This document shows, piece by piece, positions 59,503-62,129 of a stretch of DNA of 64,000 nucleotides. The notes beneath the pieces are model-generated. The model was not told the origin of the DNA. It did no database searches and saw nothing but the letters and a program-made list of their open reading frames with translations. Every line of letters begins with the position of its first letter. The first letter of the stretch is position 1. This DNA is from an uncultured Candidatus Saccharibacteria bacterium (GTDB lineage Bacteria; Patescibacteriota; Saccharimonadia; CAILAD01; BJGX01), in contig CAZSVP010000001.1 of NCBI GenBank assembly GCA_964610335.1, forward strand, positions 151,057 to 215,056, in the 5' to 3' direction. Both the position numbers and the translations under genes were made by a program.

Positions 59503-62129
59503 TTGGAGCAGATAATGTCAATGATGGATACCCAAGGCCAGGGGAGGAACCGTGAACTGGTTCTCACCCCGAGCACATACGCCTACGTGTTGGACAGCAC
59601 CAAGGGGAAGGTCTCGGTCTACGTCGGGCCGCACAAGACCACGCTGGCCGACACCGACCAGCTGTTGGTCTGGAACGACACGACCAACACCTTCGACCGA
59701 GTTGACCGGCTCGAGCTCGCCATCCAGACCTTCATGCGCGCCGGCGAGGGCCAGTACATCGTGCTGAACGATCCCACATCCGGCGGCGATGCGCCGCCGA
59801 TCGGGGTGCCCACCGAGGCCGTCAGCCTGAACGTCGGCAGCTCGGTGATCATCCCCGGTCCAACCTCGTTCGCGCTCTGGCCTGGCCAGTCCGCCGAGAC
59901 GGTCGATGGCCACCACCTCAGGCACAACCAGTATCTGATGGTGCGTGTGGTCAACCCCGACCAGGCGGCGGCCCACTGGGACAGCGCCGTGATGGCACCC
60001 CAGGTGGCCCAGACGGAGATCGTCGCTGCCACCATCGAGGGTGGCCTGGAGCCCGACAACCAAAGTCAGGGTGGAGATGAGAGCGGCGACACGCCGTCTT
60101 CTACGTCCGAGGCCGCGCAGCCGCCCGCGGTTGCAACGCCCTCGTTCCCCGATCAGTCCAGCCGGCCTGCCTTCACGATGGGCCAACTGCTGGTGATCAG
60201 GGGCACCATCGTGAGCTTCTACATCCCCAGCACCGGCGTGGAGGTGGTCCGAGAAGAACGCGGCCACTACGTCCGTGAGGCCGCACGCTGGAACAGCTCG
60301 AGTACTGCATCTTGCTGGACGAGTCGGGTGTGAAGCGCTACGTACACGGCCCGGCCGTGGTGTTTCCCGAACCGACCGAGACGTTCGTGACCAACACAGA
60401 CCGCGAGCGCAAGTTCCGTGCCATCGAGCTCGATGACCGCACCGGCATCTACGTGAAGGTGATCGCGCCCTACAGCGACGACGAGGGTGATCACCAGGTC
60501 GGCGACGAGCTGTTCATCCACGGTTCGGCTAAGGGCATCTACTTCCCGCGGCCTGAGCACTCGATCATCGAGTATGACGGCAAGCGCAAGCACCACGCCA
60601 TCGCCATCCCGGTCGGCGAGGGACGCTACGTCCTCAACCGTGATCAGGGACGGGTGGACACCGTGCGCGGTCCGCGTATGTACCTGCCTGATCCCCGCAC
60701 AGAGGTGGTGGTCCGGCGCGTGCTCGACGCTCGCACCGTTGCGTTGCTGTACCCCGGCAACGAGGAGGCCCTCAGGGTCAACGCTCGCTACGAGACCGAG
60801 GCAGCACAGCTCGACCCTGGTGAATACCTGGGTGGCGCTGAGAGGGCTTCGTTCCGCGGCATGGCCCCGGCCAGCGCTCTGGCAGAGGAAGACTTCGGTG
60901 GTGAGCGTGAGCAGCGTCGCAGCGTGCACACGCCGCCGCGCACCATCGTGCTCGACAACAAGTACGAGGGTGCCGTCGGCATCAACGTTTGGCCTGGCTA
61001 TGCCGTGATGGTCACCGACAAGTCCGGTGATCGCCGTGTCGAGCTTGGCCCCAAGGCCATCCTGCTCGAGTACGACGAGAGCCTCATGCCGATGGAGCTG
61101 TCGACGGGCAAGCCCAAGACCACCGACCGTCTGCTGCGAACGGCCTACCTGCGGACGACCAACAACAAGATCAGCGACATCGTGGAGGTCGAGACCAAGG
61201 ACCTCGTGAAGGTGCGCATCAAGATCTCGATGCTGGCCAACTTCGAGGCCGAGACCGACCAGGAGCGCGAACGCTGGTTCGACGTGGAGAACTACGTGAA
61301 GGTGCTCTGTGACCGCGTGCGATCGATGCTGCGCGGCAAGGCCAAGCGACACGGCATCCAGGAGTTCTACCGCGACAGCGTCGACATCGTGCGCGACACC
61401 ATCCTCGGTGTGCCCGAGGAGGCTGAGGGCACGACTGCTCGTGCTGGTCTGCAGTTCAAGGACTTCGGGCTGCACGTCTTCGATGTGGAGGTGCTGGCCG
61501 TCGAGATCGACGATCACGACGTGAGCTACCTGCTCACCCAGGCGCAGAGTCGCGCCTTGCAGGGGGCCATCCAGCTGTCCGAGGCCGAGGACGAGTCGGA
61601 GCGTCTCGCATCGCGCGAAGCGCTCAACCGAGCCAACCTCGGCTACGCCCACGAGACGGTGGTGGCGAAGGCGCACTTCGCCGGTGAGGAGTTGCGCTTG
61701 CAGCTCGAGGCCAACCTGGCCAAGATCACGGCCGATCTGCAGGCTGATCAGGCCAGGGTGGAGCTCACCGAGCTGCGCCTCGCCGAAGAGCGCAAGGCCA
61801 CCGAGCAGCGCAACGAGCTGCAACGTGCCACCGATGAGGTGGCCATCGCCAAGGCCAAGGCTGAGACCGAGGACTACGTCGAGCGCCTCAAGGCACTCGG
61901 CACCGAGCTCGGGGTGGCACTCCAGCAGTTCGGGGACAAGGCCTTCGTCGAGGCCATGATCACGGCGTTCGGCCCACTCGCAGCGACGCTCGGTGTCACC
62001 AACGCCGATCTGCTCTCCAAGGTGTTCGAAGGCACCGGCTTCCAAGGGGTCATGGAGACCCTCGGCCAGCGCCCGCTCGCCCAGGTCGGCAGCAACGGCA
62101 GCGGTAGCGACCGCGGCTACCGGGACTAA
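59503..62129 (+). pseudogene. Major vault protein (MVP) homolog, ~875 aa if joined. It appears as two overlapping ORFs (59503..60333 and 60312..62129) separated by a -1 frame change near 60279-60312. High-GC island 7.
   Basis: N-terminal MVP-type repeats (YAYVLDSTKGKVSVYVGPHKTTLADTDQLL vs human [31 protein letters not shown]). C-terminal shoulder/cap-helix region DVEVLAVEIDDHDVSYLLTQAQSRALQGAIQLSEAEDE... and the tail GPLAATLGVTNADLLSKVFEGTGF parallel the human MVP C-terminus. Confidence 0.65.

Follow-up and report, generated by a model that had tools for sequence, protein, structure and literature searches.

The window, the 64,000-nt stretch of Candidatus Saccharibacteria DNA that was analysed, carries at 59515-62129 of its forward strand one gene, a member of the bacterial 'MVP-like' family and a homolog of major vault protein (MVP), which forms the shell of the eukaryotic vault. 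This gene is split into a 272-aa ORF, counted from its ATG, and a 605-aa ORF, which lie where the earlier note on this DNA had placed them: ORF1 at 59503-60333 (frame 1) and ORF2 at 60312-62129 (frame 0), both on the forward strand. The biological start is ATG 59515, preceded by GGAG. The features of the locus are:

59124-59200, forward strand: tRNA-Arg(gcg), found with ARAGORN and Rfam, 315 nt upstream of the MVP start
59201-59356, forward strand: 155-nt structured repeat element of a kind that follows tRNA genes, between the tRNA and the MVP promoter
59426-59454, forward strand: promoter-like site (-35 TTGAAA 59426-59431, 17-nt spacer, TGG, -10 TATAAA 59449-59454), from sequence and alignment
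59505-59508, forward strand: Shine-Dalgarno GGAG, ending 6 nt before ATG 59515
59515-60284, forward strand: MVP 5' part, frame 1, codons 1-256, GC3 0.86
60283-60285, forward strand: 1-nt deletion, GCC GC(C) ACG to GCCGCACG, from comparison with intact alleles
60285-60333, forward strand: out-of-frame tail of the truncated product, ...RWNSSSTASCWTSRV and stop (TGA 60331-60333)
60285-62129, forward strand: MVP 3' part, frame 0, codons 257-871 of the restored protein, GC3 0.86
61020-61130, forward strand: Vault_3 repeat (Pfam PF17795), holding the conserved S-T-G-K-P-K loop (61104-61121)
61161-61514, forward strand: MVP shoulder (SPFH-like) domain (Pfam PF11978, E=1.5e-25), with Foldseek matches to SPFH cage proteins
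61518-61901, forward strand: single long cap helix predicted by the structure model, residues 668-795 of the restored protein
62187-62210, forward strand: terminator-like hairpin and T-rich tail, 3' of the stop codon 62127-62129

The 5' part encodes N-terminal beta repeats (residues 12-160, pLDDT>90), then a disordered acidic/Pro-rich linker (~163-213) and half of the repeat that follows, up to the break; the remaining repeats, the shoulder, the cap helix and the C-terminal helices are encoded in the 3' part. Several other readings of the earlier note hold for the layout of the locus. The AT-rich promoter-like hexamers it described are present as TTGAAA and TATAAA with a 17-nt spacer, and the TTGA...TA.AAT pattern is kept upstream of MVP in an alignment of ten Saccharibacteria-type loci; a strict promoter scan omitted the site, the last base of its -10 hexamer being A. 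The tRNA gene adjoining MVP is tRNA-Arg(gcg), which also precedes MVP in the relatives L001, L003 and L144, and the summed length, put at about 875 aa, comes to 871 aa in the restored protein. The 155-nt repeat element is not MVP-specific and is absent at the corresponding site in L144.

The break between the two ORFs is a single missing C at 60284/60285 (GAG GCC GC(C) ACG): at 60283-60285 the window has GAGGCCG-CACGCTGG in place of the GAGGCCGCCACGCTGG of intact relatives, and the intact, C-containing form across 60270-60300 is GCCGCCACG. With the frame restored the junction peptide is ...VREAATLEQLEY..., and once the C is put back the encoded protein has 871 aa and aligns colinearly with intact homologs from bacteria, of which there are hundreds; every long homolog is a single ORF, 800-880 aa in length. 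Exactly one indel separates the CDS from three intact alleles, L001 (94% nt identity) and L144 and L145 (97.4%); the L144/L145-type allele comes from other runs of the same accession series. No stops or indels besides the missing C were found in the CDS by comparison with L001, and dN/dS against the same allele is 0.18 overall and 0.03 in the core. An uninterrupted frame for the whole protein is absent here, and the product is truncated at 272 aa. A frame-0 stop (TGA 60276-60278) bounds the possible shift zone, 60279-60333; the missing base lies inside the interval 60279-60312 to which a -1 difference in frame had been assigned from the sequence, and the remark that no slippery heptamer is evident there can be extended to the whole zone, in which neither an X XXY YYZ heptamer nor a homopolymer was found.

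We put at roughly three in four the probability that all this is explained by one MVP gene of high-GC patescibacterial origin that has lost one C, and that is now a very recent pseudogene without further decay. A high-GC member of the Patescibacteria would have supplied the CDS, through horizontal transfer or allele replacement, to a Saccharibacteria-like genome (~48% GC), where it would have come to lie at a variable site flanked by tRNA genes; it would be transcribed from its own conserved sigma-70-like promoter. One C at 60284/5 would have been lost in this strain, close relatives from the same sample series keeping the intact allele, so that translation from ATG 59515 would stop at 60333 and give a 272-aa fragment consisting of three repeats, the linker and half a repeat, while the remaining 615 codons would no longer be read in frame. 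That the pseudogene is very recent follows from the lack of a slippery site, of a ribosome-binding site for ORF2 and of any other damage (dN/dS 0.18).

The gene has 65.2% GC against 48.5% in the rest of the window, and the GC-rich block (59501-62200) coincides with the CDS, in agreement with the island of ~65% GC reported from the sequence; the genome around it, at ~48.5% GC, is mid-range and not the low-GC genome that the earlier note had taken it for. GC3 is 0.86 in the MVP gene and 0.40-0.50 in host genes, and R/(R+K) is 0.68 in MVP compared with 0.36 in host proteins. Further high-GC3 genes, including purL, purM and purN, are scattered in the window. The gene falls within a monophyletic clade of the Saccharibacteria/Patescibacteria type, and a Patescibacteria-like genome of 62% GC (L053) carries a composition-matched MVP. 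Of the suggestion of a foreign gene, the foreign composition stands and the exotic donor that it implied is not supported: the clade is Saccharibacteria-type and a plausible donor is a high-GC Patescibacterium. Because the gene is foreign in composition yet sits inside this clade, its sequence points to a high-GC relative, and not a eukaryote, as the likely donor. The arrangement tRNA-Arg...MVP...tRNA-Ser(cga) is common to L001 and L003, so the gene may have been at this locus for long, and allele replacement fits better than fresh insertion.

An old resident, vertically inherited in Saccharibacteria with its high GC kept by selection or biased gene conversion, would account for the monophyly of the Saccharibacteria MVPs, for this shared synteny, for the conserved promoter and for the higher GC of MVP than of its flanks, seen in all CPR loci examined, yet we consider it unlikely, since GC3 across the Saccharibacteria-type clade ranges from 0.37 to 0.88 and follows residence, not function, and the GC3 of GroEL, also in the window, is an ordinary 0.52. 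It is also opposed by the 94.7% nt identity of the cassettes of L005 and L046, which have only the MVP cassette in common and lie in unrelated flanks, by the 3' end of the gene, which is mosaic relative to L001 from ~61600 onward (dS 0.70, compared with 0.06 upstream), by the variable gene content directly downstream of MVP, and by the other high-GC3 genes scattered in the window. High expression as the cause of the high GC3 is ruled out by the GroEL value. L046, labelled 'Iamiaceae' (Actinomycetota), was rejected as a donor: its flanks are a 50-66% GC mosaic like the window and only the cassette is common to it and the Saccharibacterial L005, so that it is probably a mis-binned contig, and it was left out of the donor evidence.

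The earlier note had offered three explanations for the split, and pseudogenisation is the best supported of them, the same deletion being present in two separately assembled runs. Logan contigs of SRR14932608 and SRR14932609, to which an exact protein look-up led, are 100% identical to the window over 59144-64000, frameshift included; searching JGI metagenomes for the exact junction pattern of the frameshift gave no match, and the nearest match in a protein-guided scan of the same metagenomes was 82%. Both contigs, 4.9 kb of match with the deletion included, come from assemblies made per run and apart from the deposited one, and neither shows an intact variant; the second explanation, a sequencing or assembly error in an organism with an intact and functional 871-aa gene, is therefore disfavoured; we judge it distinctly improbable, even though the deletion is the sole lesion in a gene that otherwise looks to be under purifying selection, the site is a GC-rich CC dinucleotide, and the adjacent run numbers leave room for a library shared with the NCBI contig and for a systematic, platform-specific error. 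The site is not a homopolymer, and other long genes of the window are intact (purL, 1301 aa; ValS, 811 aa; GroEL, 546 aa; TsaD), so the assembly is not indel-prone. An apparent second frameshift, considered as a sign of an error-prone assembly, proved to be two complete overlapping FemAB paralogues (45701-46858 and 46729-47688), and the gaps in the large-ORF map of the window are filled by small ORFs. On this sequence evidence the deletion is probably real and not an artefact.

The third explanation was two genuinely separate genes, and to it may be added a programmed -1 ribosomal frameshift that restores the full protein; either way a functional split, including one into a repeat fragment and a shoulder/cap fragment, is very improbable. 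The ORFs do overlap by 22 nt in a -1 configuration, and ORF2 as listed begins with TTG 60312, with GTG codons after it, but no Shine-Dalgarno or other ribosome-binding site was found upstream of that TTG or of the nearby GTGs and the break falls inside the beta-repeat domain, and two separate genes are unlikely for these two reasons. The shift zone holds neither a heptamer nor a homopolymer that could serve frameshifting, the 97% and 94% identical alleles are uninterrupted, and none of the relatives, drawn from 49 loci in genomes, 74 in metagenomes and 11 in viruses, shows a conserved split, the short homologs that were checked being contig-end truncations. Naturally N-terminally short MVP isoforms were likewise rejected: P0026 (649 aa) and P0070 (590 aa) both start where their contigs are cut off and are truncations.

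The homology with MVP proposed from the sequence is far beyond chance. In the Pfam search that had been recommended, ORF2 matched MVP_shoulder (PF11978) with E=1.5e-25 and 89.9 bits (cut-off 25) over profile positions 2-118 of 118, and Vault_3 (PF17795) with 35 bits (cut-off 28.8); ORF1 gave no match in Pfam. The AlphaFold model of ORF1 (pLDDT 82.7) matched only MVP in the PDB, either R1-R7 or full-length, with probability 1.00 and TM ~0.45-0.49 over ~245 columns for the top 16 matches, after which the scores fall to noise. Sequence searches of the PDB returned MVP alone, colinear, with E=7e-17 for the single sequence and E=1.8e-35 for the profile, whose alignment reaches rat MVP residue 819. 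Structure prediction of the joined protein, also recommended, gave a full-length model for which Foldseek found MVP at E ~1e-30 over ~950 columns, with SPFH cages next; the model is of a monomer only, with low-confidence segments and a pTM of 0.44. Helices are predicted at residues 668-795 (cap helix) and 802-851 (C-terminal), and the N-terminal vault-repeat array is supported by the Vault_3 match, the ORF1 model and the alignment of the full-length model. Of the full MVP domain order claimed earlier, the beta repeats, the SPFH-like shoulder, the long cap helix and the C-terminal helices are recovered, and the repeat count appears lower: judging from the secondary structure of the model, the repeat region would consist of about seven beta modules and two disordered/helical inserts, not nine repeats. 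That the protein is a generic SPFH/band-7 protein with unrelated beta-rich repeats, as a weak Band_7 match (E=7e-4, below the cut-off) and Foldseek matches to flotillin, HflK/C and prohibitin (E=1e-8 to 1e-5) might suggest, is hardly credible, for the scores of MVP structures surpass those of SPFH proteins by ~20 orders of magnitude, a search with just the N-terminal fragment finds MVP exclusively, both Vault_3 and MVP_shoulder exceed the Pfam curated cut-offs, and there is no membrane anchor.

The locus shows two marks of an island, compositional deviation (GC3 0.86 against ~0.45) and tRNA adjacency, and in three independent lineages the 2 kb upstream of MVP contain a gene for a tRNA or tmRNA. 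No integrase was found among the MVP neighbours, and no second copy of the tRNA-Arg 3' end (att repeat) in the window. A gathering scan of the 64 kb with Rfam, the Vault family included, gave four tRNAs and nothing else; a relaxed ncRNA scan of 57600-59600 gave tRNAs and sub-threshold noise, a weak YrlA match (E=0.2) overlapping the tRNA. The PADLOC and PHROGs libraries both left the MVP protein unmatched, and the genes around MVP in seven related loci include no conserved partner. Since the human vault shoulder binds NAD+/ADP-ribose, the neighbouring NUDT9-like NUDIX and isochorismatase genes were considered as functional partners and rejected: a Nudix box is present in only 4 of 130 MVP loci (1.49 Mb), about the background, and the three adjacent genes of this set are an insertion relative to L001. 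Their adjacency to MVP was put down to coincidence.

The intact 871-aa protein would begin with beta-sandwich repeats, followed by a shoulder of SPFH type, a ~130-residue helix and, at its C-terminus, a small bundle of helices. Eukaryotic MVP and the SPFH cages HflK/C and flotillin suggest by analogy that it would self-assemble through the shoulder and the cap helix, forming in the cytoplasm a large, hollow and closed cage; the PDB searches returned no assembly of a bacterial MVP. The S-T-G-K-P-K loop (61104-61121) aligns with the 'keyhole loop' of human MVP, S501-K506, which binds the diphosphate of NAD+/ADP; the human pocket for NAD+/ADP(-ribose), at the shoulder, includes R504, K506 and R511. 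The S-x-G-[RK]-P-K loop is kept, S530, P534 and K535 being invariant in 58 homologs, and human R507, P508, H509, R511, W545, P565 and K573 are not conserved, their counterparts here being T, T, D, L, A, E and D. A bolder and rather doubtful proposal is that Patescibacteria, the ultrasmall Saccharibacteria among them, build genuine vault-like cages from a mobile single-gene MVP cassette with its own promoter, which recombination at hot spots next to tRNA or tmRNA genes spreads among them and onto phages. If so, the vault shell would be a nanocompartment of prokaryotes that is mobile, whatever it carries or binds, perhaps a nucleotide held by the conserved keyhole loop, would become accessible in a minimal cell, and natural knock-outs such as this strain could be used for comparison.

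To our knowledge the function of the vault has stood unexplained since 1986, and we know of bacterial MVP homologs only as in silico observations, none of them characterised. The family as such is already known in bacteria, and the frameshift is ordinary strain-level pseudogenisation; what the locus adds is a well-populated MVP clade in ultrasmall Patescibacteria, where the gene behaves as a mobile one-gene cassette that brings its own promoter and retains a high-GC signature. Within one sample series some alleles are intact and others naturally inactivated, and the gene is therefore dispensable under some conditions. P0001 and P0404 are candidates for expression and cryo-EM, with this strain as a natural loss-of-function.

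MVP had been called rare outside eukaryotes, a view contradicted by more than 5,900 bacterial 90%-identity clusters from many phyla; the family has 579 50%-identity representatives at E<=1e-30, and in NCBI and JGI, proteins from Parcubacteria already carry the name 'major vault protein'. Descriptions of bacterial homologs go back to 2013 (Daly et al. 2013, PMC3762200), examples being those of Saprospira grandis (H6L4P8), Microscilla marina (A1ZGE7), Plesiocystis pacifica and Herpetosiphon aurantiacus (PMC3762200; Sokolskyi 2019, bioRxiv 10.1101/872010); a literature search gave no paper on MVP in Saccharibacteria. These bacterial proteins are of the same family and architecture as the window MVP, each from a lone gene without conserved partners. 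The Saprospira grandis locus is 39% identical to the window MVP, and other relatives from the genome collection are 45-70% identical, in each case over essentially the full length. The window MVP differs from other bacterial MVP-like proteins in belonging to a separate Saccharibacteria/Patescibacteria clade, in its acidic/Pro-rich disordered insert (~163-213), and in its high-GC-type composition inside mid- or low-GC genomes; here it is also frameshifted.

The eukaryotic vault is a closed, two-halved cage of 78 MVP subunits. Eukaryotic MVP (rat, human and rabbit vault; 4V60, 4HL8, 9BW5, 9Z4W) has the same domain order and folds as the window MVP, rat MVP being colinear with it (query 231-365 with 287-421, query 475-799 with 479-819), and shares the basic S-x-G-[RK]-P-K 'keyhole' loop. 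Identity in structural alignments is, however, just ~16-19%, most other residues of the NAD+ pocket differ, and the window MVP probably has fewer repeat modules and has two inserts; no vault RNA, TEP1/TROVE or PARP4 was found near it in the 64-kb window. The SPFH cages (HflK/C, flotillin, prohibitin, stomatin, erlin) resemble it in the combination of SPFH domain and coiled coil, from which they build closed multimeric cages and which corresponds to the shoulder and the long helix (Foldseek E=1e-8 to 1e-5), whereas the window MVP has no membrane anchor and has a long N-terminal beta-repeat array that they lack. Phage-encoded homologs have also been reported (Santos et al. 2023, bioRxiv 10.1101/2023.11.10.566534); together with those on the IMG/VR contigs L131-L141 they are of the same family, full length and 35-42% identical to the window MVP, much more distant than its Saccharibacterial relatives. 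Their neighbours are of the phage replication and recombination type (SbcCD-like, UvsX-like, DNA pol A), unlike the window locus, at which no phage genes were found; given such phage-encoded homologs, the MVP gene travels on mobile genomes.

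The MVP gene is represented in the window by two reading frames, with a tRNA gene nearby:
59124-59200: tRNA-Arg(gcg), near the MVP gene
59503..60333 (+): MVP ORF1, from the ORF listing
60312..62129 (+): MVP ORF2, from the ORF listing, its frame differing from that of ORF1 by -1

In Pfam, ORF2 matches MVP_shoulder (E=1.5e-25) and Vault_3, both above their cut-offs, and ORF1 has no match. A PDB sequence search with the conceptually restored protein returned major vault proteins only (E=7e-17), a search with a profile of 58 homologs reached E=1.8e-35, and the restored protein is colinear with rat MVP (231-365 with 287-421, and 475-799 with 479-819). 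The full-length AlphaFold model, made from P0001, an intact relative 94% identical to the window protein, combines beta-rich modules with an alpha/beta shoulder, a single ~128-residue helix and terminal helices; in Foldseek against the PDB its top matches are twelve full-length MVP chains (E=1e-31 to 1e-24), followed by the MVP R1-R7 crystal structures and then by SPFH cage proteins. A model of the 5' fragment encoded in the window (256 aa, pLDDT 82.7, pTM 0.73) retrieves MVP entries only, the top 16 at probability 1.00, before a steep drop to noise. The sequence searches and the structure models therefore identify ORF1 and ORF2 as parts of one MVP-type protein, and the homology claimed in the earlier note is borne out by Pfam, the PDB sequence search and Foldseek alike. 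Judging by a secondary-structure count, the repeat region probably comprises roughly seven beta modules, not nine repeats; it contains a disordered acidic/Pro-rich insert (~163-213) and a helical/disordered one (~406-485).

The homologous reading leaves frame 1 after ...HYVREAA and resumes in frame 0 with TLEQLEYCILLDESG..., and in the frame translations stops are found at 60276-60278 (frame 0) and 60331-60333 (frame 1). The nearest database protein, P0001 (871 aa), is encoded on L001, a 6.9-kb Logan contig 93.8% identical to window 58012-62204, and the sole indel within the CDS is one C absent from the window in GAG GCC GC[C] ACG CTG. L144 and L145 are intact alleles as well; in the CDS they are 97.4% identical to the window, differing by 68 substitutions and the same missing base. 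The frameshift called in the earlier note is thus correct, consisting of one C missing relative to L001, L144 and L145. The 55-nt zone open to a shift contains neither a slippery heptamer nor a homopolymer, TTG 60312 and the GTGs that follow it are without a Shine-Dalgarno sequence, the break is located within a beta-repeat domain, and the long MVP homologs, at 800-880 aa, are each encoded by a single ORF (two short homologs that were inspected begin at contig ends); this argues against a programmed shift and against ORF2 as a separate gene. Relative to L001, dN/dS is 0.18 overall and 0.03 in codons 257-700, and the CDS bears no lesion besides the deletion, which argues that the deletion is recent.

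The main alternative, an artefactual loss of the C, is improbable. By exact-sequence look-up the 272-aa and 605-aa products were both found in the per-run Logan assemblies of SRR14932609 and SRR14932608, whose contigs match window 59144-64000 with 100% identity, deletion included; since separate assemblies carry the deletion and other long genes of the window are unbroken, we consider it probably real. Runs SRR14932533 and SRR14932522, with accession numbers of the same series, yielded the intact allele product P0404. Among the explanations considered earlier it is pseudogenisation that is supported, and we assign a probability of about 0.85 to a real, recent, strain-level and inactivating deletion. 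Elsewhere in the window, tandem FemAB-family (GNAT) paralogues at 45701-46858 (-) and 46729-47688 (-) have ORFs overlapping by 130 nt; a second frameshift was ruled out there, each containing a complete domain.

The true start of the MVP gene is ATG 59515 (MSMMDTQ...), with GGAG at 59505-59508 just upstream, and in ten loci the gene is preceded by a conserved TTGA-N17-TA.AAT promoter and GGAG/GGGG ribosome-binding site. The MVP region has a GC content of 65.2% versus 48.5% in the remaining window, and at 100-nt resolution the GC-rich block has the extent of the CDS (36% in the 100 nt upstream, 41% in the 100 nt past 62200). By composition the gene is foreign, with a GC3 of 0.86 (host genes 0.40-0.50, GroEL 0.52) and an R/(R+K) of 0.68 in its product, versus 0.36 in host proteins. 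The high-GC amino-acid signature extends throughout the Saccharibacteria-type MVP clade, even with GC3 down to 0.37 at the related locus L003; the low-GC Bacteroidota MVPs are adapted in composition. A 281-kb contig of 62% GC carries a 53%-identical MVP with GC3 in line with that of its neighbours, the same protein is also present on a 787-kb contig, and the P-type ATPase beside the gene has its best named relatives in Patescibacteria. This is the type of donor to be expected for the window MVP.

The window as a whole is a compositional mosaic, with high-GC3 genes scattered through a background of GC3 0.40-0.50:
29137-33813, 37216-38662, 47725-48285, 49290-50219, 51440-52561, 63096-63770: genes with GC3 0.56-0.84
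They include purN-like, purL and purM-like genes, an isochorismatase-family gene and several without a Pfam match, which suggests repeated acquisition from high-GC donors, purine-biosynthesis genes among them. A GC-rich (~0.64) stretch of ~1 kb at 42190-43180, with GC1, GC2 and GC3 about equal on both strands, has no credible ORF, no Pfam match and nothing in Rfam even at E<=1; its folding is far more stable than that of shuffled sequence (z=-8.2 on the + strand, -9.1 on the -), with many long perfect hairpins, and it is a candidate for a large structured non-coding RNA or a foreign non-coding insert.

MVP relatives occur in 49 species-representative genomes of Saccharibacteria, Paceibacterota, Chloroflexota, Riflebacteria, Myxococcota, Bacteroidota (including Saprospira grandis), Gemmatimonadota and others, in a further 74 JGI metagenome loci and on 11 IMG/VR contigs. 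The bacterial family comprises >5,900 90%-identity clusters, and 579 among 1.84 billion 50%-identity representatives match at E<=1e-30. In a neighbour-joining tree the Saccharibacterial MVPs group in a single clade, and the remaining clusters mostly match their taxon labels. On predicted viral contigs (L131, a 64-kb IMG/VR contig, 4739-16343) MVP homologs adjoin SbcD/SbcC-like nuclease, DNA methyltransferase and UvsX-like recombinase genes, and on a JGI metagenome contig (L130, 1866-5744) DNA polymerase A and RecA; these neighbours fit phage carriage of MVP genes. Bacterial homologs were reported in 2013 (PMC3762200), with a further description in 2019 (bioRxiv 10.1101/872010) and phage copies following in 2023 (bioRxiv 10.1101/2023.11.10.566534), and Parcubacteria proteins are already labelled 'major vault protein' at NCBI and JGI; our literature search found no paper on MVP in Saccharibacteria. 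As such proteins had already been described or labelled, the window gene is an additional, broken member of a known family. Both the rarity stated and the exotic origin implied in the earlier note were overstated, given the number of clusters and phyla, the 2013 description, the single Saccharibacterial clade and the Patescibacteria-like high-GC donor type.

Several observations point to mobility of the MVP gene. The Saccharibacterial locus L005 (918-3696) and L046 (1650-4429), on a contig binned to 'Iamiaceae', a different phylum, have in common the MVP gene and ~90 bp on each side only, at 94.7% nucleotide identity, between unrelated flanks; either the single gene was recently transferred, or one contig is mis-binned and its cassette relocated. 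In the comparison of window 61600-63900 with L001 4300-6300 and locus L143, the 3'-terminal ~500 bp of the MVP gene in the window is mosaic relative to L001 (dS 0.70 versus 0.06 in the rest of the gene), marking a recombination breakpoint inside the cap-helix region. Directly downstream, the window has three genes more than L001 (NUDT9-like NUDIX, isochorismatase-family, TrmB-like regulator), beyond which four small genes are common to both. Since neither integrase nor att repeat was found at the window locus, and the order tRNA-Arg/MVP/tRNA-Ser(cga) is common to L001 and L003, we consider a fresh insertion less likely than replacement of the allele at a recombination hot spot. A tRNA or tmRNA gene lies <2 kb upstream of MVP in three independent lineages. 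In other Saccharibacterial lineages, MVP lies 0.1-1.8 kb downstream of such genes, with integrase absent, echoing the window's tRNA-Arg adjacency:
L006 7915-8306, L007 7849-8239, L054 6166-6556, L005 683-861: tmRNA gene or tRNA-Leu/tRNA-Val pair upstream of MVP

A structured element of ~155 nt lies directly 3' of tRNA-Arg(gcg) and tRNA-Ser(gga), and in L001 also of tRNA-Ser(tga):
window 59201-59356 and 34857-35014; L001 32-200 and 1374-1537: tRNA-adjoining element
The element comprises a hairpin that varies with compensatory changes and a conserved ~110-nt core with a long-range stem (GGGTTCGGCGAGCGAGGCGC / GCGTAGCCGCTATCCC), and its end mimics the tRNA 3' end. Its presence varies among strains 94-97% identical: L001 has one copy more, and L144 59-93 is an empty site with a 35-nt hairpin in its place. 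Rfam has no family for it and IMG/VR no match; a small mobile element and a tRNA-linked small RNA are the candidate identities. Between tRNA-Ser(tga) and tRNA-Arg, 58141-58965 (+) encodes a conserved 274-aa protein, Pro/Gln-rich at its N-terminus and hydrophobic in a middle segment, whose 90%-identity cluster has 11 sequences and which has no family match in Pfam, NCBIfam, PADLOC or PHROGs.

The MVP neighbourhoods of related loci have no conserved neighbours and no TEP1, PARP4 or TROVE proteins, window searches found no vault RNA, and the protein matches no defence or phage family. The NUDT9-like NUDIX and isochorismatase genes next to MVP suggested a functional link; it was rejected, as these genes are not enriched near MVP elsewhere. 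By homology, the best-supported mechanism for the intact protein would be self-assembly into a hollow cage by way of its SPFH-like shoulder and its cap helix. In human MVP the NAD+/ADP pocket is centred on a keyhole loop with R504, K506 and R511 (PMC12280208); most remaining residues of that pocket are not conserved in the bacterial family, whereas the corresponding S-T-G-K-P-K loop is conserved and near-invariant.
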